Source: Defluviitaleaceae bacterium (GTDB lineage: Bacteria > Bacillota > Clostridia > Lachnospirales > WRAX01). Taken from it: a DNA stretch of 64,000 nt. The notes beneath the pieces are model-generated. The model worked only from the letters and a program-made list of their open reading frames with translations. It did no database searches and was not told the origin of the DNA. A program made the position numbers and the translations under genes. The DNA is taken from the NCBI GenBank assembly GCA_009784615.1, contig WRBJ01000003.1:19005-83004 (forward strand). Direction: 5' to 3'. Position 1 is the first letter of the stretch, and every line of letters begins with the position of its first letter. Positions 14,542 through 49,921 of the stretch are shown one piece after another.

Positions 14542-14734
14542 TTTGCAAAAATCACCCCATATTCACATATAATAAAGTTATTATCTATTATTATACAATA
14601 TGTGGCAGGGTTTGTCAAGGGATTTTTGAAAAAAATATTACAAATATTAAATTTTTTAAACCGCAACAAAAGGGGTTGAATTTTGCCGAAAAAAGAGTAT
14701 AATGATATTAGGTCGTTATTGAGGGAGAATATAG

Positions 14735-32082: not shown

Positions 32083-32520
32083 TTACACATCTTTTCGGTC
32101 GATATTTCCTCTATCGCCCCTATCTTTCAAAGCCTTCAAAATATCTTGCAGTCTTTTCGGCACGGGCAAACCCATCAAACTCCAATTTTCAAGCATACTA
32201 AGTGCTTCGTTCGCAATAAAATACGATATGGTAATAGTACGCAAAACTCCGCCAAGCTCTAAAACACTGTCAACCAAATTGCCCACCGCAACAATAAAAA
32301 ACATACCAATCTTACGTGCTGCACCAACAAACATTTTATACGAGCTTATATCGCGCATAACGCCCGCCTTAATTATGCCTGTAACAAAATCAATACCCAT
32401 CATAGCGAAAAGCGCAAGCAATAATGCGTCAGTACCGCCTATTAAATATGTGAATAAACTAATAACACCACCAATAAACCCACGTATATAAATATTTTCA
32501 AACATATCAAACACCTCCAT
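32083..32520 (-). CDS. Phage holin (TcdE/holin_4-like family)
   Basis: Three TM segments. The sequence GIDFVTGIIKA......SS.....G..RK........VGNL.D and the C-terminal ANE.LS.LEN....G.P.P are typical of this holin family. Confidence 0.75.
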   Translation of the reverse strand: MEVFDMFENIYIRGFIGGVISLFTYLIGGTDALLLALFAMMGIDFVTGIIKAGVMRDISSYKMFVGAARKIGMFFIVAVGNLVDSVLELGGVLRTITISYFIANEALSMLENWSLMGLPVPKRLQDILKALKDRGDRGNIDRKDV

Positions 32521-32536
32521 AATATTATATGCCGCA

Positions 32537-32797
32537 CTATATTGTACGGCTCATCATCTTTAAAACACCAAACCAACGGTTTACATCATTATAATCCAAC
32601 CACGACATATCTCGATTTTCTCCCTGCCAAACCTTATCGCTACCAATCCTACGCTCGATTCCATTAATAAATTCTGCAGTAGGAATAAGCCGCTCGTCCG
32701 CCGACAAATCCAATTCATCAATCCCAAGCCTGCGAAACTCCTCATTCAACCCCTCGAAAACTTCAATGCTCATAAAATCATCCCTCGTATAACTCAT
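32537..32797 (-). CDS. Phage-associated hypothetical protein
   Basis: 86-aa ORF with an AGGAGGGA RBS, located between the tail gene and the holin. Confidence 0.35.
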   Translation of the reverse strand: MSYTRDDFMSIEVFEGLNEEFRRLGIDELDLSADERLIPTAEFINGIERRIGSDKVWQGENRDMSWLDYNDVNRWFGVLKMMSRTI

Positions 32798-32964
32798 AAT
32801 CCCTCCTAAATAACTGCTGTTTCACTTTAAGGCGGCTAAAAATTCCGCCTGACCTGACAGGCATTCACGACATAGAGCAACTTTAGCTTCTGTTGTCCCG
32901 CCGCAAGTTAAACACGACGGGTTTCAGCGGCGTGTTTGACGTAGTCGGGGGGGACTACAGAAGG

Positions 32965-34836
32965 TTAAGTTGCTATAACAACCGCCTTGGTCGCCCCCGT
33001 AAAAACCCCGCCGTCAAACCCTATCTCTTGATAAAACGCTCTGCACCTTACCATCCTGCCATCCTTATCCACCTGTAACATAAAATTATCCCCAAGCTCG
33101 CAATCCACATCGCCCCGCCAATGCACCTTTGCAAACACCAAAGCCCGTAAAAGCCTAAATTTACGCTCTAAAAACCAATCCCGCACGCTTTGTATATGTA
33201 CCGCATTGCTAATAAACATAGGCAAATCTACCATATACGGCTTTTCTGCTTCGCCCTCCTTCTTCCACGGTGCAAAATAAAAATGTTGCGTGGATAATAT
33301 CGAACACCGCCAACCCCGCACCTCTACCGTACAACGCCCATTGCCAACGACCCTAGCTGTCATATACATCGTATGCCTTTGCAGATTTTGCAAGCCAAAC
33401 CCGCCTGTAACACTTACATTAGCCTCGCCCCAAATAGGTGCGTCATAAGGTATCATCACATCAAGCGACCCTGCCACATCCAATTGCACATTAGCCAGCC
33501 ACCCTTGGTCAAGCGAAATCATACGCTCTGTCAACATAATCCCATTATAATAATGGCTTTGCGAAATCTGCGGTTTTGCATACGCCACCCCATAGTCCAA
33601 ATCTGCCTTTAGCTCGCCTTGATGTATAGAAAATAAATCAACAAAATGTATTCTACCCTGCCTATCCTCATAAATTCCGCAGCTTGCCAGCTTTGCCAAA
33701 TCTGCCAAAGCCCTTCTATGGCTTACATTCCCTGTAAAACCGGGGAAACGTGGGTAAGTATTCATAATATGCGGTACAACAACCTCAACACCCGCCTCGG
33801 CGGCAATCCTTCTTGCCAAATCACCCATATGCTCCAACCCAAAATGACCACCGTAAAACACCGCATTATCAAGCATTTTCGCCCCGCTATGCGCAACCAT
33901 CTCTACATTATCATTGCTAACAACCCACCTATCCAAATAATATTGCGAAAAATTTGTGTAAATCATCCCGCCATCACTGCCATAGCCTACACCTTGCGCA
34001 TATTCCAGCCTACTGCCTTCCTCTAACATAGAAAACAAGCCATCACCCACATCAAGCAAGTTAAAACGCCCATTGCTATTAGCCACCTTAACCCGAAGTT
34101 CGTTATAAGGCAAATTTTTACCCTCCACATCTCCCTGATGTATTGCATTAACTTCAAGCAAATCCCCACCATCAAACACCACAACGGGCGCAAAATGCAC
34201 TTCGGTTACCCTAGCCCGCCTATGCGGTTGCACCATATTGTAAACTGTTATAACAATCTGCGAAACACCATTTGCCCCATCTGTGCCGATAATATGCGGA
34301 AAAACTCCACTCTCATCAGGTGCAGAGCTAATAAATACATTCCTAATAACAGACCCAGACCGACTCCTAAAAACAGCCTGTGCAAAACGTATGGGCGCAT
34401 TGTTCCTATCACAAACAATATTAACAACAGGGACATCTCTAGGAGTATCAAAATCAATTACAATCTCGGGACGATTTGCAAAAGCACCATTTTCATTAGC
34501 AATTTCATCTGAAACAAAGCCCACCTCGATTTGCGAATTTTCTGCCTCCACAGGCAACATAAAACTACCATCCAACCGCCACAAACCACGCTCCATCGTC
34601 GCAATTTTTCCCGCATTATGGCTTATCCCATTTAAAACCTGCCCAACCCGCGAGTGTTTAGCTCCGCTTGCCGAGCTAACCACAACATCGTCCTTTAAAT
34701 TCCCATCATTGCCCGAAAGTGTAATCAAAGCCTTGTTCCTACGCAACGCTTTATTTTTCAACAAACTCACAACCCACATCCTTCCACCACAATTCCCCAT
34801 TAACAACCACAATGCGCCCCGCTTTCGGTTGCGCAT
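32965..34836 (-). CDS. Phage distal tail/host-interaction protein (start uncertain, possibly 34779)
   Basis: A large ORF immediately after the TMP and a Dit-like gene. The call rests mainly on position. Confidence 0.5.
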   Translation of the reverse strand: MRNRKRGALWLLMGNCGGRMWVVSLLKNKALRRNKALITLSGNDGNLKDDVVVSSASGAKHSRVGQVLNGISHNAGKIATMERGLWRLDGSFMLPVEAENSQIEVGFVSDEIANENGAFANRPEIVIDFDTPRDVPVVNIVCDRNNAPIRFAQAVFRSRSGSVIRNVFISSAPDESGVFPHIIGTDGANGVSQIVITVYNMVQPHRRARVTEVHFAPVVVFDGGDLLEVNAIHQGDVEGKNLPYNELRVKVANSNGRFNLLDVGDGLFSMLEEGSRLEYAQGVGYGSDGGMIYTNFSQYYLDRWVVSNDNVEMVAHSGAKMLDNAVFYGGHFGLEHMGDLARRIAAEAGVEVVVPHIMNTYPRFPGFTGNVSHRRALADLAKLASCGIYEDRQGRIHFVDLFSIHQGELKADLDYGVAYAKPQISQSHYYNGIMLTERMISLDQGWLANVQLDVAGSLDVMIPYDAPIWGEANVSVTGGFGLQNLQRHTMYMTARVVGNGRCTVEVRGWRCSILSTQHFYFAPWKKEGEAEKPYMVDLPMFISNAVHIQSVRDWFLERKFRLLRALVFAKVHWRGDVDCELGDNFMLQVDKDGRMVRCRAFYQEIGFDGGVFTGATKAVVIAT

Positions 34837-35182
34837 ACATCATCTTCTCCACCGCCTTTTGCTCTTTGGGGCAAAAATACCGCACATTCACAAATAAAGG
34901 CGAAGCACCCCGCACCAACCTACCATAATCATCCCCGCTTATCATACGCCAACCACAGCTAACCACAGCCTTAACTGCCACCAAATCGCCAACCAAATCT
35001 CCATTGGCATTACGGTTAAATTCGCCAATATCCTCAAAGCCCACGCCATAAACATCAGGGCTAACCAAGCCCATACCATCAATCACTATCTCAACCAAAA
35101 AATCCCCCCAATCAATATCCCCGTCTTGCTTTAACCTCATCCAAACCGTCAACCAAAACCTCTGCCAACTTCCTGCCGTCAA
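34751..35182 (-). CDS. Phage distal tail protein-like (small)
   Basis: The position directly downstream of the tape measure gene supports the call. The start is uncertain and overlaps the TMP 3' end. Confidence 0.4.
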   Translation of the reverse strand: MTAGSWQRFWLTVWMRLKQDGDIDWGDFLVEIVIDGMGLVSPDVYGVGFEDIGEFNRNANGDLVGDLVAVKAVVSCGWRMISGDDYGRLVRGASPLFVNVRYFCPKEQKAVEKMMYAQPKAGRIVVVNGELWWKDVGCEFVEK

Positions 35183-36077
35183 GCTCTAGCACAACCTTCT
35201 GCACGCCACCCCTTGGCGAACCATCACCCGCTACGGCATCCGCAAGCATATTAGCCAAATTAACCATCCAGCCTGTATTATTTTCAAGCGGAAGCACGGC
35301 TTCCCTGCCTTGCTCGCCAACAAGCGCAAGCGTAGGAGCCGACACAATGCCGCCTTTAGCAAGCGCAGGCACATTAGGAATAGCAGGCACATTAAACCCC
35401 AAACTACCTCCGCCAAGCCATCTAGGAATATCAATTTTAATACGGTTAATCCCACCAATCATCGTATTTAGTCCGTCAATTATGCGATTAACCACACCGC
35501 TAAAATTTCTGCCAATGCCCGTCCAAGTGTTATCCCAGCCCGCACCCATTCCCGCAAGCATACCATCCCAGCTACCCGCAATGCCGCCACTAACCCGCTC
35601 TACAGCATTGCCCAAACCACCAACATCCCTTTGTGCGCCGCCAAAAGCCGCCCTAAAGCCACCCGCAAAACCCCTTGCACTACTGGTCAAATTATTAATA
35701 TTAGAAAGTAATCCCCTAGTGCCTTCCGTAACTGCCGCAAAAGACATCTCTGCCAAATCCCGCCCCATACGTACGGCGCTTTCACCAAATGCCTGAGCTC
35801 TGTCCGAAAGTGTCGATAACATACTCGCCGCCCGCTCTTGCGCATTAATATTGCTTAAAAAATTCCTTGTCAATATTGGCATATCACTAATCAAATCACC
35901 CAAAACGCCCGAAAGTCCACCAACAGCTTCTCTTGCAGGCAAACTGCCTTGCGCAAAAGCCGCAAAATCGTTTTCCATACCATTAAGCAACCTACCCGCA
36001 TTTGCCAAGCCCTTCTCTAATTCCTTCATATCAAGCCGCAAATCCAAATATACCGAACCAACATTAGTCCCTGCCAT
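35112..36077 (-). CDS. Phage tail tape measure protein (short, 321 aa)
   Basis: A Gly/Ala-rich helical protein beginning MAGTNVGSVYLDLRLDMKELEKG. It follows the chaperone pair. Confidence 0.6.
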   Translation of the reverse strand: MAGTNVGSVYLDLRLDMKELEKGLANAGRLLNGMENDFAAFAQGSLPAREAVGGLSGVLGDLISDMPILTRNFLSNINAQERAASMLSTLSDRAQAFGESAVRMGRDLAEMSFAAVTEGTRGLLSNINNLTSSARGFAGGFRAAFGGAQRDVGGLGNAVERVSGGIAGSWDGMLAGMGAGWDNTWTGIGRNFSGVVNRIIDGLNTMIGGINRIKIDIPRWLGGGSLGFNVPAIPNVPALAKGGIVSAPTLALVGEQGREAVLPLENNTGWMVNLANMLADAVAGDGSPRGGVQKVVLELDGRKLAEVLVDGLDEVKARRGY

Positions 36078-36086
36078 AAAAACCTC

Positions 36087-36458
36087 CTATCCAAACATAG
36101 CCATCAATTCCTTCTGCAACTCCTCGTAGCGGCAACTCTCGTTCGCTCGGCAGCCTTGTCGTTTTTTCGTGTTACAAAATTCAAACCAATCCGCACGCAA
36201 CTTACGCTCCATCACACTCAATCCCTTCAAAACTTCGCTTCTTTTTTCGCTACGTAATATGACGAGCCGCCCAAGCGGTGTGTCGGGCATTATACCCGAC
36301 AACAACCGCAAAAACTCCCCAAGCGGCAAATCTTCTTTGCTTAACCTAATCCCATACTGCATAGCAAAGCTGGCTTCAATAGCGTCTTTGTCAAATTCTA
36401 AATCGTAATATGTATCATTCTGTTTTGCCACGAAATCGACGCTTTGCTTCCTCCACAT
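36087..36458 (-). CDS. Tail assembly chaperone, downstream (T-like) frame
   Basis: It overlaps the end of the upstream chaperone ORF by 44 nt in the +1 frame and has no convincing RBS of its own. Confidence 0.45.
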   Translation of the reverse strand: MWRKQSVDFVAKQNDTYYDLEFDKDAIEASFAMQYGIRLSKEDLPLGEFLRLLSGIMPDTPLGRLVILRSEKRSEVLKGLSVMERKLRADWFEFCNTKKRQGCRANESCRYEELQKELMAMFG

Positions 36459-36741
36459 TTAAATCTTGAATAGCCGCAAGCACAATAACCACCAAATCTT
36501 GCATTACAGCAAAAGGCAAATCCATCCCCAAAATTTCCTGGTAGCTATCCAGCCCTAAAGCCTGTCCTATAACAATTTCAAATTCATCGCTCGAAGCAGT
36601 TTCGCCGCCTTCCAACGCCTTTAACATACCATTGATTCCCCTAAAGGTCGAAAGTCTGTTATCAATAGAATAAATCTTGTCGCCAAGCCTTATTTCTGGG
36701 CGTTTGTTCAATTTCTCGTTATCAATTTGATACATTAACAT
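36415..36741 (-). CDS. Tail assembly chaperone (G-like)
   Basis: A small acidic protein between the tail tube and TMP genes. The start overlaps the tail tube 3' end. Confidence 0.5.
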   Translation of the reverse strand: MLMYQIDNEKLNKRPEIRLGDKIYSIDNRLSTFRGINGMLKALEGGETASSDEFEIVIGQALGLDSYQEILGMDLPFAVMQDLVVIVLAAIQDLNVEEAKRRFRGKTE

Positions 36742-37219
36742 CACCCCCAAACAACGTAGGCGAAGGTGTCAAAACATCCCCACTATTGCGCATATAAAGC
36801 GGTATGCCGTCGCTTAAACATTCAAACTCTAGCACAGCAATATCGGTAGAGCTACCGCCGCCGCAAGCCGTTACGTTAATAACGCAATCCATAGTCATTT
36901 GGTCACCGTTAGGAAAAATAACCCATAAATTGCTCTCTGCCAAATTACCGTTTTGATACGCCAAGCCCGCAATATAATCATTGCCTGGGCAATTAACAAC
37001 ACGCTTTCCTGACAAGCCAACTGTCATAGATTTTGCCGTCATCATCCTGCGACTCCATCCCATAGCATCCAGCGGCTTCCATTCCTCAATCCCATTATCA
37101 AAGCTAATAGAAAAATTCTCCATTCCTCTAATTGTCTGATGGTCGTCCTCATTGACGGCAAGCCTGCCAACCGTCGAAACTTTAAATTGAACATCTTTTA
37201 CAGGATAAACATTAACCAT
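36722..37219 (-). CDS. Phage major tail (tube) protein
   Basis: 165 aa, immediately upstream of the chaperone pair. A GGAGGAAATGG RBS is present. Confidence 0.55.
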   Translation of the reverse strand: MVNVYPVKDVQFKVSTVGRLAVNEDDHQTIRGMENFSISFDNGIEEWKPLDAMGWSRRMMTAKSMTVGLSGKRVVNCPGNDYIAGLAYQNGNLAESNLWVIFPNGDQMTMDCVINVTACGGGSSTDIAVLEFECLSDGIPLYMRNSGDVLTPSPTLFGGDVNVSN

Positions 37220-37231
37220 ACCATTTCCTCC

Positions 37232-37621
37232 CTACGAAATAAAATCCACATCTATTACATATTCAAAAACCCCACGACTATCAGCCCCAAGCCAAATTGG
37301 GTTATCGTAAATCACCTTTACAAACCCGCTCTTGTCCTCAAGTGTGAAATTTTTACCTGCCATTGCTTCATAAAAATCTTTTGACATTTTTTCGGCAATA
37401 GCACCATCACGACCCAGCCGCAATAATACGCTAACTGCCGTTACATCGTAAGCCCGATTTTGCTTGCCTCCGACATTCTCTTGCCTGTTACGGCTACCAC
37501 GGCGTGGGTAAATACCGCCAGCGATTTCACGATTTTTGGCGATTTCGTGTAGGTCGAATTGTACAGCGTGCAAGCAATGCTCGCCCCTACAAATAATTTC
37601 TTTAACCTCGTTTAAGCTCAT
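37232..37621 (-). CDS. Phage head-tail joining / tail completion protein
   Basis: Call based on position only. Confidence 0.35.
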   Translation of the reverse strand: MSLNEVKEIICRGEHCLHAVQFDLHEIAKNREIAGGIYPRRGSRNRQENVGGKQNRAYDVTAVSVLLRLGRDGAIAEKMSKDFYEAMAGKNFTLEDKSGFVKVIYDNPIWLGADSRGVFEYVIDVDFIS

Positions 37622-38231
37622 TTTTCATCACCTCTGCAAATGTCTTCTGAGCAAGACCGTTGTTGATATATGGGTCAAACCACCTTGCTCCTGCGTTGTT
37701 GTTTATGGTTTGGTTAAAACTAAACTCAGGATGAAAATATTTGCGCCTTGCATATACCGTGTCGTTGACAATTGATACCTTTTCATCGTCCAAGCCGCCA
37801 ACATCAACATAGGTTGCCGCATTTTGCAAATGACCTGTGTCAAAAGGCATTGTTCCGTTATTGACCAAATCCTGCCTTATTGCCTGTGCCGCCGCAACAA
37901 GCGCATTTTTCAACCCAAAGCAGATATGATTAAAACTTCCGTCGGGATTATTAACGACCTTCATTTCCACCACGTCGTATCGAATGTCGTTGCACAAAAA
38001 CTCTAAATCCTGCAAATCACAACAGCGAGCAACCCTCAAAACCTTTTCGCAATCCGTCGTAGCAATTGCCGTAACATCCTGCAAAACGCCGTCATTTTCA
38101 CGTTTAACATTAACACACTCGCCAAAATAGCACCATCCACGCCAAACTTCCTCACCACTTAAAAAAATCCCAAAATCCCAATTTTGCAAAAATTTAGGAT
38201 AAGGCAATTTGCCCCAGTTTTTAAGCATCAT
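37602..38231 (-). CDS. Phage head completion / minor capsid-like protein
   Basis: The ATG at 38231 overlaps the upstream stop (ATGA). The C-terminal half resembles phage minor capsid/neck proteins. Confidence 0.4.
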   Translation of the reverse strand: MMLKNWGKLPYPKFLQNWDFGIFLSGEEVWRGWCYFGECVNVKRENDGVLQDVTAIATTDCEKVLRVARCCDLQDLEFLCNDIRYDVVEMKVVNNPDGSFNHICFGLKNALVAAAQAIRQDLVNNGTMPFDTGHLQNAATYVDVGGLDDEKVSIVNDTVYARRKYFHPEFSFNQTINNNAGARWFDPYINNGLAQKTFAEVMKNELKRG

Positions 38232-38596
38232 ACAACACTCCTCATCAACCCTGTTGACATTAACATCTGCCAAGCCCAAAAGCCGCAACCCGCCACTTCC
38301 CACGGTTTTTCCTTGCGTACTTGGTTTTGAACCTTCATACCGTAGGCACTATATCCCGCCAAATTAACCGCAGGTGTACCATCCACATTAGCAAAACTAT
38401 CAATCATCAAGCAAATAGCCTTTTTAATTATCCCCTGCTGATACTTTGTTAAATTGCCAAAACCCAAAGCATTAATTCTACCGTGTGTTAAAATATCCAC
38501 CAAGTCGCACGCTCTATCAAGCAATTTCCTCAAATCTTCCCCGCAATACCGTCCTTTGTATGTCCTGCGATAATATCCTTCAGTAATATAACTCAC
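38228..38596 (-). CDS. Phage head-tail connector protein
   Basis: A GTG start follows GGGAGGGG. It is the first gene downstream of the capsid gene. Confidence 0.4.
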   Translation of the reverse strand: MSYITEGYYRRTYKGRYCGEDLRKLLDRACDLVDILTHGRINALGFGNLTKYQQGIIKKAICLMIDSFANVDGTPAVNLAGYSAYGMKVQNQVRKEKPWEVAGCGFWAWQMLMSTGLMRSVV

Positions 38597-38662
38597 AAAT
38601 ATACCCCTCCCTAGAAAAACGCAGGGGCGACCTCTAGTCGCCCGCTCCGCAATTCTCTACTT

Positions 38663-39541
38663 CTAATTAGCATTAATGGCAATACCGCCAATCCTAGTAT
38701 CAATAACAAATAAATCGCCATATTGGCGGTTTTGATAAAGATATCCATCACCAACCGTATGGCTACCCGGTGCCCATAGCTTAATATAACTATGTTTATT
38801 AACCGCAATAACCGATGATGGATGTATCAACATCATATTAATTTGCCTTGCGCTTGCCACTGGCACAAACCCATCGCTAAAATCATAAGCCGTCTTCATA
38901 CGGCTGGTTGGTACAACAACCACCTGCACCTCGTCCAGCATACGCACATTGCGCTTTATGTTGCCGTCGCCTTCAATAACATTCATAACACGGTTAAGCT
39001 CGGCAGATTGTGCAAGCATTTTGTTTACAGCAGGCGTAACGTACAAAATTCTACCTTCCTGCGGAACTTCTTCTTCGTCCATACGTTGCATATACTCATC
39101 AAAAACCTCAAGCACATTTTCACGGTTAAGGCTACGATTATCTGCATTTGCACCCGATGCAATAAAATCTTGATGAACTTTGCTTAAACGATATGCGTCG
39201 GTTTCTGGAATGGCGTGTTCGGTTTCAAAAACATTTGTCAAATTAACCGCCGCCAATACCTGATTGGTTTCGTCAACATCCATAGCATCCACAAAAAATT
39301 CTACATCACGGTCGTGAGCCAATACTTTTGTTAAATTGCCATTTGCCACCGTTTGGCGATTAAACCCGCCATCACGACTATGATTCTTGTAACCTCTTAA
39401 CGCTAAAAATGGAATTTTCACCGTGTTGCCGCCCAAAAAATTGACATTCTCTGTTGTTAAACCGCTTGTTAGTAGCTCACGGTTATATTTCTGTCTTAAC
39501 TCTCCCTCAAAAACACTCGCATAATTAACAAAATTAGCCAT
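38663..39541 (-). CDS. Phage major capsid protein
   Basis: 292 aa with a GAGGAGGAATG RBS. It sits in the expected position after the portal and a small scaffold-like ORF, and is flanked by hairpins on both sides. Confidence 0.65.
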   Translation of the reverse strand: MANFVNYASVFEGELRQKYNRELLTSGLTTENVNFLGGNTVKIPFLALRGYKNHSRDGGFNRQTVANGNLTKVLAHDRDVEFFVDAMDVDETNQVLAAVNLTNVFETEHAIPETDAYRLSKVHQDFIASGANADNRSLNRENVLEVFDEYMQRMDEEEVPQEGRILYVTPAVNKMLAQSAELNRVMNVIEGDGNIKRNVRMLDEVQVVVVPTSRMKTAYDFSDGFVPVASARQINMMLIHPSSVIAVNKHSYIKLWAPGSHTVGDGYLYQNRQYGDLFVIDTRIGGIAINAN

Positions 39542-39610
39542 TACACATTCCTCCTCATATTATATGCTATTCCGCCTGAAGGCGGCTGACAGATTACGGC
39601 CGACAGCCGC

Positions 39611-39862
39611 CTAAACATTCCCAAACCCCTTCGCAATCGCATTTTGCGATTTTTGCACAACACCCAAATCTGCACCAATTTTAAAACCCACAGGCGGCAT
39701 ATTAGCAAGGTTAGGGGCGGTTTCCATACCCTCTGCCAGCTTCGTCAAAGCCACCATCATCACCTCTAGTGTTTCGTTAATCATTTCCAGCTTATCCGCA
39801 AGCTCTTGCCCATCATAAGCCTTGTCATAATGGTTTTCGTACAAATCTTCATAACTTCTCAT
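39611..39862 (-). CDS. Small phage protein (scaffold- or decoration-like)
   Basis: The ATG at 39862 follows GGAGGG. The protein is 83 aa, helical and acidic. Confidence 0.3.
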   Translation of the reverse strand: MRSYEDLYENHYDKAYDGQELADKLEMINETLEVMMVALTKLAEGMETAPNLANMPPVGFKIGADLGVVQKSQNAIAKGFGNV

Positions 39863-39863
39863 T

Positions 39864-41288
39864 TTAATTCCCTCCATTTTTCTGGCACAATCGCCTAATT
39901 TCATCATTTTTTTGTTGTGTTGTCCAAGTATCCCCATACAACTGCTCTAACGCTGTTTCTACAGAAATAATCCCCAACTGCACACCCTTGCCAACGCTTT
40001 CAATCTGGCTGTCAAAGCTGGGTGCGGCATATTCGCCAAATTCCGCTTGCACTTCATAATCCACTGGCACATTTGCATACAACGCATCATTTAATGCCAT
40101 AACAACCCTTGTCAACTGCGCCAAAGCCACTCGCAAGCCGCCAATAATCTTGCCACGGGTATAAAGTGTAGCTTTTTCCTTCTCTCTTTGTGCCATCGCA
40201 TTATCGCTTCGCTTTAAATCAATACCAAGCGTAGACGGCGACAATATGCCCTGTAACGCAATATTAAGAAAATTTGCATAGCTCGCCTCAAACGCCTCCG
40301 TATCAATATGCGGTTGCACCACCTTAATGCTGTTATCCGCCCCTTCTGCCAAATCCATTTCTGTTTGTACAAAGCGGCTTTCAAATGCATTCATAGCCTG
40401 CAATTTGCCATTATGCGGGTTTCTTGGCAACATCTGGGCTGGTATGTATTTTTGTACACGTCCATCACGTAAAGCGTCCACCCATTGGCTAATAATTTCG
40501 TCAATAGCGTCAAAAGCTCCGATTTTGCTGTCAAAAATAGACTTTCCTCTGCCCTCGAATTTAGGATTATCATCAAAAATAAGCGGCACTGCAAGGTTTA
40601 TTCCCAAATTATGCTCCACATCCGCAGGCTTTTCACCAATCACCTCCTCTCCTTTGCCATTGACCAAGCGGTATCTAATTCCTTTGTTTGAATAAATTTC
40701 TTCCAGCACCAACTTGTCATTACGAGCCTGTCCCTCAAAATCCGACAAAAACACCACTTCATATACCCTACCCCGCCGATAATTAAACCTCACCCTATCC
40801 CCACCAAAAAACTCAATAATAGGATGTGGGCTAACCTCGCCATCAAAGCTGATTTTAAAAGCTCCATCGCCCAAAGCCAAAACCTGCCGCACCGCCTTTG
40901 ATAGCAATTTGTTGAAGTCATTTCCATCTGCAATATCTTCCCAATCCGTACGGCCATCACCCTGCGAACACACTTTAACCCCCAAAAAATCCCCAACTGT
41001 TAAATCCGCCAGCGTATCCACAATTAAAGCAGGCAATCCGCTGTGAATTTTGCGTATCTTCGGGTTAGCCCCACCTTGCGACCAAAAAGACCCATTGCCC
41101 ACATAATCGTCCATTTGCCCATAAAAACTAGCCAACTCCGAGCAGTTGCCACGATACCAAATACCATTTCTAATCACCTCCTTTCCAAAATCCATATCTG
41201 ACAAAATTGTATCGTAAAACGGACGAATAATATTCGCCCCTACGATTGTGTTTCCCAACCAATCCCTCATTTTCTTAAACCACCTCAC
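39864..41288 (-). CDS. Phage portal protein (SPP1 gp6-like)
   Basis: 474 aa. The position after terL and the N-terminus (WYRGN..EL..FY) are typical of this portal family. Confidence 0.75.
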   Translation of the reverse strand: MRWFKKMRDWLGNTIVGANIIRPFYDTILSDMDFGKEVIRNGIWYRGNCSELASFYGQMDDYVGNGSFWSQGGANPKIRKIHSGLPALIVDTLADLTVGDFLGVKVCSQGDGRTDWEDIADGNDFNKLLSKAVRQVLALGDGAFKISFDGEVSPHPIIEFFGGDRVRFNYRRGRVYEVVFLSDFEGQARNDKLVLEEIYSNKGIRYRLVNGKGEEVIGEKPADVEHNLGINLAVPLIFDDNPKFEGRGKSIFDSKIGAFDAIDEIISQWVDALRDGRVQKYIPAQMLPRNPHNGKLQAMNAFESRFVQTEMDLAEGADNSIKVVQPHIDTEAFEASYANFLNIALQGILSPSTLGIDLKRSDNAMAQREKEKATLYTRGKIIGGLRVALAQLTRVVMALNDALYANVPVDYEVQAEFGEYAAPSFDSQIESVGKGVQLGIISVETALEQLYGDTWTTQQKNDEIRRLCQKNGGN

Positions 41289-41291
41289 AAA

Positions 41292-42611
41292 TTAAACCTC
41301 CATTTTCATAATTAATTGTTTAAACGGCACAACCCCATATTCCGCACTGTCCAAGCAATCCACGCTATAGCTACCATCATCAACCCTAACCCATTCGCCT
41401 TTTTCCCTCGCTTTCTCGCACCATCTAGCCGCATAAAATGCATCAACCCAAGCCGACAGCTCCTTAGCAACAAGCAGTTTTTTCTTGTTGATAAGGAAAG
41501 AAAAAAGACGTATTCTATCCAGAATCCCGTCTTTTTTATATGAAGGATAAACCGCCGTCCTTATACCACGCCTAGCAAGCTCTTGCGCCAAAGCCGCCCT
41601 AAACATCTTTTCGGCACTTTCGCAAAAAACCGCCCCGCCAAATTCAAACGCCGCAAAATCCTTCATCCACACCGCAATGCAATCCGCCAGCTCCTCAACA
41701 TATTTGGCGTGCGTCATCTCGTTACGTTTGCCCTGCCTATGATAATATCCATCAACCAGCGCAAGCTCGCCATCCGCCGTAATCCCAACCAGCGTGGCAA
41801 CCGTCGCATCACGCCCGCCAACGTCAACCCCAACAGCCATACGCACAAATTTCTTTTGCGAAAGCTCATCCCTTGGCACAATCAACCCCTCGTCAAATCC
41901 GCTATATATCACATCCGCCCCACCGCAACGCAAGCCCAATATATCCCGCCTATACCAAGCCGAAGCCTTGTCATAACTAGCAAGACGGGCACGCAAGTCA
42001 TCCTGATTTAACGCTTTGTTGTCAAACACTGTAAAATGCCCGTAATTAACGCTTTTGTCGCCCTGCACATCAAACCTATCCAAAAACTCCCTGTAAAACC
42101 AATGTCCTTTTTCCTTAGCATTTAAATCCAAAAACACCCGCCGCGTGCGCGCCGCCAGCGTCCTATCAATCGCCTCAAAGAAAAACCCCTTGTTAAGCTC
42201 GTTCGCCTCGCTTAAATAAACACATCCAAAGCTCGCCCCTTTAATCCTCGCCGCATCGCTAGCCTTACCACCCCCTTCAATAATTACCACCTTATCATCA
42301 ACAAAAATCGCTTCTTTACCCTCATACTTCCCTTCCCAGCACCGCCCACCAAAAAAATTCCGCAACCCAAACCCATTACAATCCACAATATTAAGCCTAG
42401 CACAAGCCCTTGTAACCCCCGCAACCAAATGTATCTTCTCTACACTTCGCTCAATCGCCATTGCAAAAGCAATTACATTAAGCACATTTTTACCAGCCCG
42501 CTTGCCGCCTTCTGCCACATTTAACCAGCAATCCAAACTCCTGCGCAAATATTTCCTCTGTCCCACAGAGAACCCTGCATATTCCAAATCATTCCCCCTT
42601 CTACGTAACAA
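41292..42611 (-). CDS. Phage terminase large subunit (PBSX-like family)
   Basis: A Walker A-like GGKRAGKN is near the N-terminus, and the C-terminus carries RNaseH-like nuclease acidic residues (VGVDVGGRDATV). Confidence 0.8.
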   Translation of the reverse strand: MLRRRGNDLEYAGFSVGQRKYLRRSLDCWLNVAEGGKRAGKNVLNVIAFAMAIERSVEKIHLVAGVTRACARLNIVDCNGFGLRNFFGGRCWEGKYEGKEAIFVDDKVVIIEGGGKASDAARIKGASFGCVYLSEANELNKGFFFEAIDRTLAARTRRVFLDLNAKEKGHWFYREFLDRFDVQGDKSVNYGHFTVFDNKALNQDDLRARLASYDKASAWYRRDILGLRCGGADVIYSGFDEGLIVPRDELSQKKFVRMAVGVDVGGRDATVATLVGITADGELALVDGYYHRQGKRNEMTHAKYVEELADCIAVWMKDFAAFEFGGAVFCESAEKMFRAALAQELARRGIRTAVYPSYKKDGILDRIRLFSFLINKKKLLVAKELSAWVDAFYAARWCEKAREKGEWVRVDDGSYSVDCLDSAEYGVVPFKQLIMKMEV

Positions 42612-42639
42612 AAAAAGGCTGAAGCATCAACCTTTTTAA

Positions 42640-42963
42640 TTATTTACTATTTGGATTTACTCTTATAGCAAACAAATATCCAATAGTAGCAGACAAAACA
42701 AAACGCACCGGTTCAACAATCATCATTCTTAATTGTACATCAAAATTAACATCAAGACGACTTATTATAATTTCGCCTGCATAGAACAACACTAAAAATA
42801 TACCGCAGGAACTAAGTATAAACTTACTTATTCTTAGCTTTTCTTTTTCGATTTCGTGACCTCGGTCGGCTTCTTTTTCCTTAGCTTCCCATCCTTTAAC
42901 TTCTTCATAGCTCGGATGTATCATTTCATTAAACGGCTTGTCTTCCTTAATCGGTGCTGACAT
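42640..42963 (-). CDS. Small two-TM membrane protein, candidate toxin partner of the Panacea-domain protein
   Basis: The ATG at 42963 overlaps the upstream gene by 17 nt. A charged N-terminal half is followed by two hydrophobic helices. Confidence 0.4.
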   Translation of the reverse strand: MSAPIKEDKPFNEMIHPSYEEVKGWEAKEKEADRGHEIEKEKLRISKFILSSCGIFLVLFYAGEIIISRLDVNFDVQLRMMIVEPVRFVLSATIGYLFAIRVNPNSK

Positions 42964-43486
42964 CCTCAAAAAACCTCTTTCCGTCTTCTCTAATCTCTGT
43001 ATCCCCAATAATCCAAGAACTTATTTCTCTCATCTTCTTCCAAGCTGTACCCTCTCCGTGGGTCATATCCGAAAGCTCCCAAGCATCAACATTTCTATAC
43101 TTAAGCCAAACTTCGTCAATCACATTTCTAAAAAAATCACTATCCTCATTTACAACAAGAAATTTACCGTCTATTTTTGCATAATTGTTGATAGGTCTCC
43201 ATCTAAAGTTTTTAAAATACTCGTAAACTTCACGTTCTACAGGTCCATACTGCCAAACTTCAAATTTGTTCAAAAATAAAGGAGTTCCGCTTAAATAAAG
43301 GTATCTTGCATATACAAGATAAAGCAGTTTTTGCAATTTCATAGGGGTAATTTCTATTTCATCTCTTTCAGCTCTTTGCAATATATTATTCGACACCATT
43401 AAGGAATTAACCACACAAAACGCCTCCCCTCTCCTTTTGATTTTATTATACTTCAACTTCCAAAACTTTGCAAGAACTTTTTTCAA
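42947..43486 (-). CDS. Panacea domain (DUF4065, GepA/SocA-like) protein
   Basis: The sequence ITPMKLQKLLYLVYARYLYLSGTPLF...FEVWQYGPVEREVYEYFKNF matches the DUF4065 core. A TTG start is inferred. Confidence 0.75.
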   Translation of the reverse strand: MKKVLAKFWKLKYNKIKRRGEAFCVVNSLMVSNNILQRAERDEIEITPMKLQKLLYLVYARYLYLSGTPLFLNKFEVWQYGPVEREVYEYFKNFRWRPINNYAKIDGKFLVVNEDSDFFRNVIDEVWLKYRNVDAWELSDMTHGEGTAWKKMREISSWIIGDTEIREDGKRFFEDVSTD

Positions 43487-43550
43487 ACATAATCACCACA
43501 CATTTTTTAACTATTATTAGCACTATGCTAAAATATATGTTGAGATGAAG

Positions 43551-43901
43551 CTAATTTTGCACTTTACTAATCATCTCCGCCAACATCATATAATCCACCC
43601 CTTTTTCGCTTTTTTCTTCCTCATTACCCCTAGCCCTTTTCTTCATCCACATCTCGACCGCCTTTAGCTCTCCGCCAATAGCCTTGTCAAACAAAATCTC
43701 CTCTACCATAAAATCTGCCGCTACATAATCCACCTGCAAAGCCGCCGCAATATCTTCGTGTTCTTTTTCCCATCGCTTTAGCCTATTTACCGCAACCCGC
43801 ATTTTCTTCGCCACTTGGGCATAATCGCAACCCCATCTGCGCCAACCTGCAATAAGTGCCAAACCATCACGCCGCAACCATCTGTTTAAATCTCTTTCCA
43901 A
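43551..43901 (-). CDS. Phage terminase small subunit-like HTH protein
   Basis: A TTG start at 43901 follows AAAGGAG. HTH-like LIAGWRRWGCDYAQVAKKMRVAVNRLKRW is present. The longer ATG-43961 reading would have to encode the leader terminator hairpin. Confidence 0.5.
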   Translation of the reverse strand: MERDLNRWLRRDGLALIAGWRRWGCDYAQVAKKMRVAVNRLKRWEKEHEDIAAALQVDYVAADFMVEEILFDKAIGGELKAVEMWMKKRARGNEEEKSEKGVDYMMLAEMISKVQN

Positions 43902-43920: not shown

Positions 43921-43951
43921 AAAATAAAACAGACACCCCAAAGGATGCCTG
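43921..43951 (-). terminator. Intrinsic terminator in the leader of the phage-derived cluster
   Basis: The minus-strand RNA reads CAGGCAUCCuuugGGGUGUCUG followed by UUUUAUUUU. It lies between the promoter (-10 at 43996-44001) and the first start codon. Confidence 0.55.
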
Positions 43952-43977
43952 ATTTTTTCAAATAAAATTGCTTTTCT

Positions 43978-44040
43978 TCACTTCTCCACTATACCATTAT
44001 ACCACAGGTGCGACTAACAAACAATCTCATCTTTTTTAAA
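43978..44040 (-). promoter_or_regulatory. Promoter cassette copy 1 (TTGTTT-17-TATAAT with TGn)
   Basis: The minus strand reads TTGTTTgttagtcgcacctgtggTATAAT. The ~62-bp cassette is repeated at 44598-44659 with 3 mismatches and 1 indel. Confidence 0.6.
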
Positions 44041-44047
44041 AAATAAA

Positions 44048-44289
44048 CCCCCGTCATTGCGAGGGCGTAAGGGTATACGACAAGCGCAGATAAAGACTGT
44101 CAAGCAACTTGTTGTAGAGCAAACTAGATTGCTTCGGGGTTCACACCCCTCTTGTCGTAGGAACGTCCCTCGCAATGACGAAGCCCGCCCACTCGTCATT
44201 GCGAGGGCTACCAAATACATAAAGCAATACACATCAAGCCCGAAGCAATCCAGCAAAGGGATGTAGATGTGACAAGGGTATACGACGAA
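44048..44289. repeat. Nested palindromic non-coding element
   Basis: There are three copies of CGTCATTGCGAGGG (44052, inverted at 44167, 44193). An inverted pair GATTGCTTCGGG/CCCGAAGCAATC lies at 44127/44239. The direct repeat AAGGGTATACGAC lies at 44069/44274. Confidence 0.7.
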
Positions 44290-44292
44290 TAC

Positions 44293-44481
44293 AAATAAAA
44301 AATCAGCCCTTTAAGACTGAATGAATAAAGCGCTTGACAAATAGACCTGAAGTGTGTTAATCTACACTTAGGTCTTCGGACTGGGAATTGGGCTTGTCGT
44401 GGTGGGTGTTCTTTGTCGAGAGTTTTACCACCACGACAAGCTATTCTTAAATTCCCGTCCGTGTCTGCCAGGATGTATTAC
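44293..44481 (-). ncRNA. Unassigned ~190-nt small RNA unit (promoter to terminator)
   Basis: The minus-strand promoter is TTGACA-17-TATGAT (44488-44516). A perfect 14-bp stem pairs 44392-44405 with 44428-44441 inside GGGAATT/AATTCCC. A second hairpin lies at 44345-44378, and a terminator hairpin plus U-run at 44293-44320. Confidence 0.45.
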
Positions 44482-44571
44482 ATAACCATCATATACCATT
44501 TAGCGAATTTTGTCAAGGTCTTTTTTTATTTGTTTCACAAAATCCCCCACACAAACAACGTATACACCAGC

Positions 44572-44597: not shown

Positions 44598-44659
44598 TTC
44601 ACTTTTCCACTCTACCATTATACCATAGGTGCGACTAACAAACAATCTCATCTTTTTAA
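44598..44659 (-). promoter_or_regulatory. Promoter cassette copy 2
   Basis: Nearly identical to 43978-44040, including the TTGTTT-17-TATAAT core. Confidence 0.6.
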
Positions 44660-44693
44660 AATTTTAAAAAATTTTCAAAACTTATTTTGCCTT

Positions 44694-45458
44694 TTATCCT
44701 CTTAACCCACGTTTGCGATAAGCCACAACAAACAATGCAATAAACAGCAACGCATTAGCCGCAACCACCAACAACGCAAAATTCATACCGCTATACATAG
44801 GCAAAATTCCTTCAACCCATTCGCCATATTCATTATAACGCCCTTCAAAAGCCTCACTGCCAATAACAATCTCAATCAAGCTATAAAAAATCTGCCCTGT
44901 AAAAATAACAGTACCAACACGTGCAACCGTATCATTAAACATAGATAAAAACGGCACAAAAGACAACACCATCATAATCGGGCTATATATAGCCGCACAT
45001 TGCTGCACATTTTTGCTAAATAAACCAATAACTGCTCCCAGTACGCTACTGGCAAGCACGCCAAGCATACCAAGCCCCATAAATTGCGCAAACTGCCCGC
45101 CACTAATGCCACCAATCCAAGCAAAAGCCAATAACGGCAACACACTCATTATAATAGTAAAGCTCATAAGCCCAACCAAATACTGCACAGGCTTAACACC
45201 AGCCGTTACCAAAAAGCGCAGACTCTTATACTCGTTATCTTCGGCAATACCGTTTGCCATCATAATAAGCGGTGTCATACCAACAAAAATCATAGCAAAC
45301 TGCATAACAATCATATTGCCCGCCTCAGGGTCCTCTTGCCCCATAAAACTACTAACGACCCAAGCAATAACGGGATACATAATAAACATCAAAGCAATGC
45401 TCATATTTTTAGGAAAATCGTTTAATTGTTTAACAAAAATAGCTTTAACCGCATTCAT
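44694..45458 (-). CDS. ABC-2 type transporter permease
   Basis: A six-TM protein whose start overlaps the stop of the upstream ATPase gene. Confidence 0.65.
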   Translation of the reverse strand: MNAVKAIFVKQLNDFPKNMSIALMFIMYPVIAWVVSSFMGQEDPEAGNMIVMQFAMIFVGMTPLIMMANGIAEDNEYKSLRFLVTAGVKPVQYLVGLMSFTIIMSVLPLLAFAWIGGISGGQFAQFMGLGMLGVLASSVLGAVIGLFSKNVQQCAAIYSPIMMVLSFVPFLSMFNDTVARVGTVIFTGQIFYSLIEIVIGSEAFEGRYNEYGEWVEGILPMYSGMNFALLVVAANALLFIALFVVAYRKRGLRG

Positions 45459-46278: not shown

Positions 46279-46304
46279 GACTTTCGTGCCATAATATATC
46301 TTTT

Positions 46305-46392
46305 GGAGAAGTACTCAAGTGGCCGAAGAGGCGTCCCTGCTAAGGATGTAGGTCGGGCAACCGGCGCGAGGGTTCAAATCCCTCCTTCTCCG
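46305..46392 (+). tRNA. tRNA-Ser (anticodon GCU)
   Basis: The cloverleaf was folded by hand. It has acceptor GGAGAAG/CTTCTCC, anticodon loop CUGCUAA, a long variable arm, T-loop GGTTCAAATCC and discriminator G. No CCA is encoded. Confidence 0.9.
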
Positions 46393-46402
46393 TACTATAT
46401 AT

Positions 46403-47186: not shown

Positions 47187-48278
47187 TTACATACGCTCAA
47201 TGCTTCTGCTCATCTGCTCTGGATTTGTAGCGTGTGTAATAGCTGTTTCTTTTGTAATATCACCTTTTTTAAATAGGTTAAGGATGTAGGAATCCATACT
47301 AATCATCCCTGTGCCAGATGATGTTTGCAAGACATTGTCAATTTGGAAAGTTTTAGATTCTCTTATTAAATTGCGTATGGCACTGTTTACGTGCATAACT
47401 TCAAACGCAGGCACCACGCCGCCGCTGGCTTTTGGCAATAATTGCTGTGATATAACCGTCCTTAATAGCAATGGCAGTTGAAAACGCACTTGTGTTTGCT
47501 GTTGTGCGGGAAAAACGTCCACAATACGCTCTATTGTATTTGCCGCACCCAATGTATGTAGGGTAGATATAAGCAAATGTCCTGTTTCTGCGGCAGTCAT
47601 CGCAGTTTTAATTGTTTCGTGGTCACGCATTTCACCTAGCAAAATAATATCGGGTGCTTGACGCAAACAGGCTCGCAAAGCTGTCAAATAAGACCTTGTG
47701 TCTGTAGAAATCTCCCGCTGACTTACAAGGCTTTTTTTATCTTTATGAAGATATTCAATAGGGTCTTCCAATGTTATTATATGCCCGTTTCTTGTGCTGT
47801 TAATAGCGTCGATAATGCAGGCAAGCGTTGTTGTTTTGCCGCTACCAGCGGGTCCCGTTACCAAAACCATACCGTTTTTTTCATTAGCCACCTTCATAAC
47901 TTCTTCAGGAATATGAAGGTTTTGATAATTAGGCAAATCAAAAGAAACTACACGTATAACCGCCGCAAATGTGCCGCGCTGGTTATAGGCCGAAACCCTA
48001 AAACGAGCAACCCCAGCAAGAGTTATAGGAAAATCATCGTCGCCGTTTTTTTCATAGTTGCTAATATCCCTTTGGGCATATTCGTATAATTCTTTTACAT
48101 ATTTATTGGCTGTTGCAGGACTTACACGTTCTTCGCTTTGTTCTGCAATACTGCCATCTATCCTAAAAGACATATGCCGTCCTGCCCCAATAAAAATATC
48201 TGATGCATTTTTTTGCACCGCTTGTTCTAACCAGTGTCGCACAGATTCGTTCACAAAAAACCTCCCAATTATCGACAA
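47187..48278 (-). CDS. pilT: PilT-family type IV pilus (retraction-type) ATPase
   Basis: Walker A GPAGSGKTT, Walker B DIILLGEMRD and His box TGHLLISTLHT are present, along with the PilT signature AIRNLIRE. Length 363 aa. Confidence 0.85.
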   Translation of the reverse strand: MSIIGRFFVNESVRHWLEQAVQKNASDIFIGAGRHMSFRIDGSIAEQSEERVSPATANKYVKELYEYAQRDISNYEKNGDDDFPITLAGVARFRVSAYNQRGTFAAVIRVVSFDLPNYQNLHIPEEVMKVANEKNGMVLVTGPAGSGKTTTLACIIDAINSTRNGHIITLEDPIEYLHKDKKSLVSQREISTDTRSYLTALRACLRQAPDIILLGEMRDHETIKTAMTAAETGHLLISTLHTLGAANTIERIVDVFPAQQQTQVRFQLPLLLRTVISQQLLPKASGGVVPAFEVMHVNSAIRNLIRESKTFQIDNVLQTSSGTGMISMDSYILNLFKKGDITKETAITHATNPEQMSRSIERM

Positions 48279-48286
48279 AATGTCAT

Positions 48287-48706
48287 CTATTCAAAAAACC
48301 CCTGCCAAACATTTATATCTATATCAGCAGTCCAATCATTTGTATTATACATCACCCATTCAAAAATTTCAAGAGAATTATCATCTGCCACGCCAATTTC
48401 TACACGCAAAACCTGCACCTCGTTTATAGGCACAGCAAAAACAATATGCCGCAAACCTTCATATTGGCTGGATAAAATACCGATGCCCATAATATTTTCA
48501 GGCGTTTGCGATGATGATAAAATTTCGTCCACAATCTGTTCTGCAATAACATCTGCTATAAAAAAATCCTGCACAAGCCCAACCTCTGAATTAACCAAAT
48601 TTTGGCTGGTAAGCGCAGGCACCAGCGATATTATTGCAAAAATCGCAAGACACAAAACAACAAAAACAAGCATAATGGACGCACTGCCAATGCCGCCTCT
48701 TATCAT
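48287..48706 (-). CDS. Membrane-anchored pilus-operon protein
   Basis: An N-terminal hydrophobic anchor. It is translationally coupled within the operon. Confidence 0.35.
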   Translation of the reverse strand: MIRGGIGSASIMLVFVVLCLAIFAIISLVPALTSQNLVNSEVGLVQDFFIADVIAEQIVDEILSSSQTPENIMGIGILSSQYEGLRHIVFAVPINEVQVLRVEIGVADDNSLEIFEWVMYNTNDWTADIDINVWQGFFE

Positions 48707-49068
48707 CGTACACCCCTCCTTGCCGCCGCCGTAAGGGTTACAAGCTCCTCACCATCATCAACCCTTATAACCACAATATCAGCAAAAACAATATTACCAC
48801 CGTCATCACGCACGGTCATATCCAAAGAAAAATTTTCGTCAATATCCCTGTTTATCATTTCAACAACCTTATCAGCATCGCCGCCAAAGGCTTTAAAACT
48901 TTCTGCAGCACTTTCTGCAACAGCCAGCGCATTACGTGCGTCCACAGAATTTTGCGTAATCAAATATGCCGAAGATATAATGCTAACACTAACTGCGGCA
49001 CAAAAGGCAAAAATTGCTATTACAATAATTTGCTCTATTAACAAAAGGGTTGATTTTGAACGTTTCAT
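48703..49068 (-). CDS. Prepilin-like (pseudopilin) protein with an atypical leader
   Basis: The N-terminus MKRSKSTLLLIEQIIVIAIFAF resembles the class III signal/N-terminal helix with a conserved Glu, but lacks the Gly at the cleavage site. Confidence 0.5.
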   Translation of the reverse strand: MKRSKSTLLLIEQIIVIAIFAFCAAVSVSIISSAYLITQNSVDARNALAVAESAAESFKAFGGDADKVVEMINRDIDENFSLDMTVRDDGGNIVFADIVVIRVDDGEELVTLTAAARRGVR

Positions 49069-49568: not shown

Positions 49569-49574
49569 CGCCTA

Positions 49575-49907: not shown

Positions 49908-49921
49908 AAAGCACCCCTAAC

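Follow-up and report, generated by a model that had tools for sequence, protein, structure and literature searches.

Few gene transfer agents (GTAs) are well characterized, and most of them are alphaproteobacterial. For Gram-positive bacteria, PMC12946183 names just two, PBSX and a podovirus-like element described recently, FpGTA. There is precedent for GTA-like packaging in Clostridia: reports of it cover Ruminococcaceae, Oscillospiraceae, and Christensenellaceae, the one element identified being FpGTA, which is widely conserved in its host genus (PMC12946183). We analyzed a 64,000-nucleotide (nt) stretch of the genome of a Defluviitaleaceae bacterium (assembly GCA_009784615.1, contig WRBJ01000003.1, positions 19,005 to 83,004; hereafter, the window, numbered from its first nucleotide), in which an initial annotation had described a block of phage head, tail, and holin genes and had read it as a candidate GTA-like or domesticated siphovirus element. 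This reading is supported by same-site pairs of clusters under purifying selection and by the absence of autonomy modules. On the basis of gene content and comparisons among relatives, we propose, with about even confidence, that the block is a domesticated, miniaturized, and chromosomally fixed siphovirus-derived operon that is vertically inherited in its uncultured termite-gut Clostridia hosts, GTA-like or PBSX-like, and most likely particle building. A recent randomly decaying prophage, an autonomous phage, and a satellite are excluded by the data, and the block represents a credible candidate for a new GTA-like element in Gram-positive bacteria. The annotation knew of no established siphovirus-type GTA in Clostridia, which still holds in the searchable literature (FpGTA is podovirus-like; PMC12946183), where we found nothing on a GTA of termite-gut Clostridia or on a siphovirus-type element.

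The block runs on the minus strand from 43901 to 32083 (~12 kb) and comprises 18 open reading frames (ORFs), all co-oriented and none interrupted, much as first described. Its ORFs were annotated by profile searches against PHROGs and Pfam; these searches covered the cluster, its immediate flanks, and the region from 46.4 to 63 kb, while the remaining ORFs of the window were read by eye. The profile searches, which the annotation had proposed as a check, returned the structural identities that it had claimed. They also agree with its canonical gene order, except that a two-gene insert between the small (TerS) and large (TerL) terminase subunit genes had been overlooked. The reported ATGA-type packing hinges on the choice of start codons, the called starts giving overlaps of 14 to 52 nt or gaps of 1 to 167 nt. 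In the order of transcription, the genes are as follows (aa, amino acids).

43551 to 43901, minus strand: TerS (phrog_309), 116 aa from a TTG start with an AGGAG ribosome-binding site; the longest ORF extends to 43961
42947 to 43414, minus strand: SocA/Panacea antitoxin-like cargo gene (PF13274)
42640 to 42963, minus strand: 107-aa cargo ORF with no family match, overlapping the Panacea gene by 17 nt
41292 to 42587, minus strand: TerL (phrog_2/PF04466)
39864 to 41270, minus strand: portal protein of the SPP1 gp6 type (phrog_533/PF05133)
39611 to 39862, minus strand: truncated scaffold of 83 aa, by homology to phage scaffolds
38663 to 39541, minus strand: major capsid protein (phrog_422; E = 1.5e-99)
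38228 to 38596, minus strand: head-tail adaptor (phrog_541)
37602 to 38279, minus strand: fused neck ORF, 209 to 233 aa, of which only the C-terminal half matches phrog_556 ("minor head protein")
37232 to 37621, minus strand: head-tail connector (phrog_2595); a tail-terminator role is suggested by position only
36722 to 37219, minus strand: major tail (tube) protein (phrog_820)
36415 to 36735, minus strand: tail assembly chaperone-like ORF (phrog_8300)
36087 to 36458, minus strand: second chaperone-like ORF (PF06854, Gp15)
35112 to 36077, minus strand: tape measure protein of 321 aa (phrog_1535, C-terminal end only)
34751 to 35152, minus strand: small ORF after the tape measure gene (phrog_1194)
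32965 to 34779, minus strand: tail hub/Tal, an ORF of 604 to 623 aa with a gp27/VgrG-like fold according to AlphaFold2 and Foldseek
32537 to 32797, minus strand: conserved 86-aa ORF with no assigned role (92 to 141 aa in relatives)
32083 to 32505, minus strand: holin (PF05105; E = 3.8e-35), the last gene of the block, convergent with an AraC gene

The sequence occurs with 100% identity on four other assemblies, and a capsid search recovered ~40 further distinct clusters (65 to 82% identity; loci are designated by L numbers), those with a name or a traceable sample being from termite-gut Clostridiales/Defluviitaleaceae metagenome-assembled genomes or a few metagenomes. In a neighbor-joining tree of the capsid proteins, the ~40 clusters form a single clade nested among ordinary phages and prophages. 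The test that the initial annotation had set out (i.e., the same chromosomal site in relatives together with purifying selection) was positive for two pairs. The window and the L105/L104 contig have in common the upstream ABC transporter pair (83% and 72 to 74% amino acid identity), and their cluster genes are 51 to 81% identical; the proportion of nonsynonymous differences (pN) is 0.15 to 0.18 in the flanks and 0.14 to 0.34 in the cluster, with a synonymous proportion (pS) of 0.62 to 0.93 throughout. In the second pair, the clusters of L003 and L096 both follow genes for AddA and an AI-2E transporter. Nonsynonymous (dN) and synonymous (dS) divergences between these two flanks (Nei-Gojobori method) are 0.23 to 0.24 and 1.1 to 1.6, respectively (dN/dS, 0.14 for AddA and 0.22 for the AI-2E transporter), while the 18 cluster genes, all of them intact, have dN values of 0.06 to 0.34, dS values of 0.8 to 2.4, and dN/dS ratios from 0.056 (tube) and 0.059 (capsid) up to 0.31. 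In both same-site pairs, the clusters have thus diverged like the flanking host genes (dN/dS, ~0.06 to 0.32), as vertical inheritance predicts. The ratios are rough because synonymous sites are saturated, and the collections hold no relatives for an unsaturated estimate, the four other contigs with this capsid being 100% identical to the window. At such saturated divergence, however, the reading frames could not have remained open without selection. An ABC exporter pair at L102 was rejected as a further case of synteny with the window; the proteins are only 25 to 28% identical and are not orthologous.

No module for an independent phage life was detected at the locus. The host flanks are those given by the annotation (an AraC-type regulator gene ending at 32078 and an ABC-2 permease gene at 44694 to 45458). 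On the holin side lie the AraC regulator gene and an ABC exporter pair, both of host type, and upstream are an ABC-2 transporter pair, a tRNA-Ser gene, a Tad/type IV pilus-like gene set, two-component systems, and the gene for IleRS. Profile searches of the block confirmed that no integrase, repressor, replication, or endolysin gene lies between the host flanks; neither the immediate flanks nor the region from 46.4 to 63 kb yielded integrase or replication genes, and no att-like direct repeats bracket the block. A tRNA-Ser(GCT) gene at 46304 to 46393, 2.3 kb past the cluster and beyond the ABC-2 transporter pair, may mark an ancestral integration site. The prohead protease that the annotation listed among the lost functions is indeed absent from the block, but this is no evidence of loss, because the full phage relatives of this capsid family likewise lack one and use a scaffold instead.

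Autonomy modules were likewise not seen in the relatives. An integrase, repressor, or replication module beside the cluster in related strains, which the annotation had named as the observation that would count against its reading, was not found: none of the contexts examined (i.e., the window, L001/L102, L003, L096/L103, L011, L098, L100, and L105/L104) contains a lysogeny or replication module, and only vestiges remain. One is a 111-aa fragment corresponding to the first third of a DnaD-like/RepA_N initiator (L105, L106, and L026), another is a lone DUF6291 replisome-organizer-like gene on the opposite strand (L098 and L100), and a third is the phrog_36 late activator gene of L011. In the window and these contexts, phage-like structural genes thus lie in a chromosome unaccompanied by functions for their excision or replication. 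An intact temperate siphovirus is not compatible with these data, since lysogeny and replication modules are absent and lysis functions, scaffold, and tape measure are absent or reduced. In the contexts annotated with Pfam or by our own scans, the clusters border directly on host genes, which downstream include those for ClpB and TetR regulators, and several have taken up genes of host type. The upstream genes and the insertions are listed below.

L001, upstream: Mnh antiporter and MATE genes
L003 and L096, upstream: AddA and AI-2E transporter genes
L011, upstream: fumarase, AroD, a GNAT, and UbiA genes
L100, upstream: L20/L35/IF3 and QueT genes
L098, upstream: VanW gene
L105, upstream: ABC transporter pair
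L001, 7939 to 9603: PAS-domain methyl-accepting chemotaxis protein gene, between portal and scaffold
L001, 11609 to 13433: Ntox44 toxin-domain ORF and two similar ORFs (by eye), between the adaptor and the next neck gene
L096/L103, cargo: Zn-ribbon, GNAT, and glyoxalase genes
L100, cargo: thiamine pyrophosphokinase gene
L098, cargo: Cas2/VapD-like gene
L098, 6176 to 6259, and L100, 5045 to 5128: tRNA-Leu(CAA), opposite strand, between TerS and TerL

It is unlikely that a free phage would tolerate such host-type genes inside its structural cluster.

The reduction of head and tail genes is a property of the clade. All loci with at least 65% capsid identity carry only an ORF of 66 to 153 aa between portal and capsid (plus the chemoreceptor cargo of L001) and, where it is visible, a tape measure of 178 to 371 aa, whereas all loci with 63% or less that are long enough to judge have a minor head protein of 350 to 630 aa (confirmed as phrog_581 in the three loci tested), a scaffold of 180 to 267 aa, and a tape measure of 730 to 1200 aa. 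No clade member of sufficient length encodes the minor head protein. L011, at the base of the clade, takes an intermediate position: its 153-aa scaffold corresponds to the C-terminal part of phrog_2303, and it retains a phrog_36 activator gene. The short ORF of the window corresponds to only the C-terminal 50 to 65 residues of the full phage scaffolds. Similarly, the tape measure is, as had been noted, just 321 aa long, and only its C-terminal 115 to 260 residues align, to the C-terminal end of the much longer versions of the phage relatives; a search of viral contigs with this protein gave no matches.

The tail genes comprise those for the tube, the chaperones, the tape measure, and the hub, and no sheath family was matched, so that a contractile tail is not indicated. 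The two chaperone-like ORFs overlap by 44 nt. A -1 frameshift between them was considered and rejected, since no canonical -1 slippery heptamer is visible and the second ORF lies in the +1 frame. The small phrog_1194 ORF is probably Dit-like, judging from its position and its conservation in the phage relatives. The AlphaFold2 model of the 604-aa hub (predicted local distance difference test [pLDDT], 80.8; predicted template modeling score [pTM], 0.75) matched baseplate hubs in Foldseek (7aef_q, E = 3e-12; 3cdd, 3gs9, 6v8i_AE, 7zhj_b, and 9j1k_L). Since these are gp27/VgrG-type hubs that include siphovirus Tal proteins, the model indicates that the tail tip of the element is real. Sequence searches of the Protein Data Bank with TerS, the hub, and the Dit-like ORF gave no usable match. 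In a subgroup of relatives (L103, 6435 to 8772; also L096 and L003), three added ORFs (141, 142, and 499 aa) lie between hub and holin and are possibly fiber genes; the lineage of the window keeps only the 86-aa homologue of the first of them. The cluster ends in the holin gene with no adjacent endolysin gene in the window, L098, L004, L103, and L104. Particle release would accordingly need an unlinked or host wall hydrolase. Reading of the window by eye revealed a cell wall amidase-like ORF (~20652 to 21272) and a neighboring LysM-like ORF, neither adjacent to the cluster.

One of the matches of the hub model, the monocin tip 9j1k_L, also bears on the possibility that the product is a PBSX-like killer particle or has drifted toward a tailocin, i.e., that it acts as a bacteriocin against relatives that do not carry it and packages DNA only incidentally. 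PBSX is the classic Gram-positive precedent, with random 13-kb DNA that is not transferred (PMC7667829), and this alternative differs from the GTA-like one solely in what the particles do. We nevertheless regard it as quite improbable, given that cis immunity or regulator genes and an endolysin are lacking and that the head and terminase genes are selected as strongly as the tail genes, which pure killing would not need.

Regarding the head, the N-terminal part of TerS is well conserved and aligns with that of full phage TerS proteins, while the C terminus is shorter. Loss of the DNA-binding domain as in RcGTA was therefore rejected. An AlphaFold2 model of TerS based on a two-sequence alignment was too poor for a search or interpretation (pLDDT, 57.8). 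A terminator-like hairpin (38643 to 38625) directly follows the capsid gene. By gene order, the two halves of the fused neck ORF would be head-closure-like and tail-completion-like proteins acting on separately assembled heads and tails. Between TerS and TerL, the Panacea gene is absent from this slot in the relatives examined. The 107-aa ORF that follows it looks hydrophobic and membrane-like by eye and may be its toxin partner, the pair resembling a toxin-antitoxin system; PADLOC gave no match for the pair or for the 86-aa ORF. In relatives, the same slot holds a 169-aa ORF that looks membrane-like by eye (L105) or the tRNA-Leu gene (L098/L100).

The annotation had proposed that a host-type sigma-A promoter followed by a terminator drives the block. 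Both signals are present, although the promoter is of the extended -10 type and occurs in two copies, and the hairpin sits in the leader rather than at the end of the block. The promoter region contains the following features.

43977 to 44047, minus strand: promoter-proximal copy of a 71-nt repeat, with the promoter motif at 43992 to 44019, directly upstream of TerS
44598 to 44668, minus strand: upstream copy of the 71-nt repeat, with the motif at 44613 to 44640, followed by a hairpin and a T-run
43930 to 43951, minus strand: terminator-like leader hairpin and T-run, between the promoter and the TerS ribosome-binding site

The two copies of the direct repeat are 90% identical and 621 nt apart, and the repeat duplicates the promoter of the cluster. 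The motif at 43992 to 44019 (TGTTAGT-N6-TGTG-G-TATAAT-GG-TATAGT-GGAG) belongs to a noncoding clade motif, TGTTRGT-N6-TRTG-N-TAnWAT-nGTAnnnTGGAAAATTAG, which reads as an extended -10 promoter plus a second -10-like hexamer just downstream. It precedes TerS in the window (two copies), L003 (two copies, ~185 nt apart), L096, L002, L098/L099, L100/L101, and L105, and in L025 it stands directly ahead of the portal gene. Equivalent leader hairpins were recognized by eye in L003, L096, and L002.

The minus strand may also encode a small RNA between the promoter copies (44295 to 44520), with a TTGACA-17-TATGAT promoter (44516 to 44488) and a terminator (44320 to 44303); a 191-nt region has a folding energy of -67.8 kcal/mol (z = -8.2). 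Rfam gave no match for this candidate, for the block, or for the leader, and the other loci fetched contain no counterpart of the candidate. At 44052 to 44207, hairpins resembling repetitive extragenic palindromes are formed from CCCTCGCAATGACG / CGTCATTGCGAGGG and generate a spurious 80-aa ORF (44014 to 44256); repeat-derived ORFs of a like kind occur in the intergenic DNA of relatives.

The promoter core is common to a real prophage (L006/L032), in which it lies right after the phrog_36/phrog_248 activator gene. Full phages and L011, the basal clade member, are the only ones to encode a phrog_36 activator in cis; no homologue was detected in the 64-kb window or adjoining most clade members. 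A conserved late-type promoter with no cis activator suggests that activation, and probably read-through of the leader hairpin as well, comes from elsewhere (i.e., from the host or a phage). The shared core also raises the alternative of helper dependence, in which the operon would stay silent until a related phage supplies a phrog_36-type late activator; the miniature head and tail proteins would then either disrupt phage assembly as decoys or borrow lysis and replication functions to spread host DNA. The missing cis activator and the missing endolysin would fit such a scheme, as would the truncated scaffold and the short tape measure, since satellites remodel the capsids of their helpers with parts of this kind, an example being CpmB of the Staphylococcus aureus pathogenicity islands (SaPIs). 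However, the block has a full structural set with its own terminase, portal, and tail tip, of which interference alone would need less, and it lacks the integrase, replication genes, and att sites of satellites. No helper phage was identified, and we consider helper dependence unlikely. A phage-triggered GTA or decoy, fixed in an entire family of termite-gut Clostridia, whose late promoter obeys only the activator of incoming related phages seems more doubtful still; if such a system exists, infection would trigger small particles that export host DNA or sabotage the invader, combining gene transfer with defense.

Several observations weigh against a functional, particle-building operon. Among relatives whose contigs are long enough, about every second copy is incomplete. 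The tape measure, Dit-like gene, and hub are missing from L004 and L098; since L098 and L099 come from different samples and have identical head and neck genes, with the tape measure retained in L099, the gap in L098, which spans tape measure to hub, suggests a recent deletion polymorphism. The terminase is absent from L025, L026, and L027, and L027 keeps only the genes from portal to chaperone. In L105/L104 and L106, a mobilizable element of ~10 kb splits the operon between capsid and adaptor, and the L105/L104 contig has a tape measure of just 178 aa. The element is located as follows.

L105, 9368 to 13707, and L104, 1 to 5933 (one 27-kb contig), also in L106: mobilizable element with genes for TnpW, a 614-aa large serine recombinase, DUF3847, a MobA/MobL relaxase, and a SEFIR/TIR protein, and further with a 914-aa ORF, an N6/N4 methyltransferase gene, and an HTH protein gene

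In the window itself, the neck ORF at 37602 to 38279 joins in frame two genes that all relatives examined encode separately; a deletion of ~20 codons removed the stop codon of the first gene and the start codon of the second, leaving the second half with no internal start. The cluster differs from the host genes of the window in codon usage (correlation of relative synonymous codon usage, 0.69, compared with a null range of 0.82 to 0.97) and in G+C content at third codon positions (0.42 versus 0.37). No endolysin, obvious receptor-binding fiber, or activator was found in the window, either by profile search or, in the remaining parts, by eye. The conserved TerS N terminus, with no sign of a lost DNA-binding region, suggests that packaging may start at a pac site instead of at random. 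Partial copies, insertions of a mobile element and of cargo, the neck fusion, codon usage unlike that of the host, and the lack of lysin, activator, and fiber genes are also what would be expected of a functionless prophage remnant in slow decay. Such a remnant would, however, be difficult to reconcile with same-site copies that are saturated at synonymous sites and yet keep 16 to 20 ORFs each open at dN/dS ratios of 0.06 to 0.3, as low as or below those of the flanking housekeeping genes, or with the clade-wide conservation of a noncoding promoter motif; we judge it quite improbable.

Two further regions of the window may be mentioned. A Tad/type IV pilus-like set (T2SSE ATPase, T2SSF, and DUF4860) occupies 47187 to 50968, a few kilobases from the cluster, and a connection to DNA uptake would be pure speculation. 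The region from 12000 to 15000 has a low G+C content (0.33, versus ~0.41) and encodes a 449-aa HTH and TPR regulator (13192 to 14541) with weak PADLOC hits.

For the domesticated operon that we prefer, the following mechanism can be envisaged. A regulator encoded elsewhere would switch on the promoter and carry transcription through the hairpin in the leader. With a truncated scaffold and a tape measure of 321 aa, the particle would have a small head and a tail ~50 nm long (at about 0.15 nm per residue). Since the element has no genome that is excised or replicated, TerS and TerL would pack chromosomal DNA into the heads in situ. Release would depend on the holin together with a wall hydrolase, either unlinked or from the host, and the particles, if GTA-like, would carry DNA to related cells. 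Should this be confirmed, the clade would indicate a route of gene flow in termite-gut communities and would yield comparative rules that separate domesticated elements from prophage debris. It would also offer a staged series for studying domestication, from full phages through L011 (activator and 153-aa scaffold) to fully reduced elements.

Several known systems resemble the block. Temperate siphoviruses of the same capsid family (e.g., the L006/L032 prophage of Clostridiales VE202-08, L009, and L012 of Paenibacillus cellulosilyticus) agree with it in gene order, and their portal, capsid, neck, tube, and chaperone proteins, tape measure C terminus, and small ORF after the tape measure are homologous to those of the block; a large ORF follows this small one, with a weak match to the hub in L030 only. 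Unlike the block, they encode the phrog_581 minor head protein, a scaffold of full length, and a tape measure of 730 to 1200 aa, and upstream of the terminase they carry a late activator (L006/L032 and L005) and a ParB-like nuclease (L006/L032). Capsid-forming satellites such as phage-inducible chromosomal islands (PICIs) are also small phage-derived islands with packaging and capsid genes, but they have an integrase, replication genes, and att sites and no tail, the opposite of the element on all four counts. Intact terminase, portal, and capsid genes set the block apart from F-type tailocins, whose tail genes stand without those for capsid and terminase.

PBSX of Bacillus subtilis is likewise a defective, non-excising phage-derived element of a Gram-positive host, and it makes DNA-containing particles. 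It is a myovirus of roughly 28 kb whose tail is contractile and which encodes its own Xre/Xpf regulators and a complete lysis cassette, whereas the present block has no sheath gene, no cis regulator, and no endolysin gene, the holin being its only lysis gene. FpGTA of Faecalibacterium comes from the same class, Clostridia, and its TerS, TerL, portal, scaffold, and capsid genes form a compact operon. By its description, however, FpGTA is podovirus-like and encoded in two operons (PMC12946183), while in the block a single operon encodes tube, chaperones, tape measure, and hub of siphovirus type.

RcGTA-type elements of Alphaproteobacteria resemble the block in having a head-tail operon of ~12 to 15 kb with no integrase or replication genes, vertical inheritance, purifying selection, a short tape measure (with a tail that, in the block, is predicted to be short), a reduced or absent scaffold (in RcGTA, with a small head), and a regulator that lies outside the cluster in RcGTA and presumably does so for the block. 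The block differs from them in its independent ancestry (a phrog_422 capsid, the nearest phages being Firmicutes siphoviruses such as Clostridium perfringens CP51, with ~50% identity), a scaffold-based head with no protease, the retained TerS N terminus, a holin in cis, and a Gram-positive host. A siphovirus-derived lineage in Clostridia would represent an independent, convergent domestication, with signatures in common with RcGTA (i.e., lost autonomy modules, shortened tape measure, reduced scaffold, and probable outside regulation).

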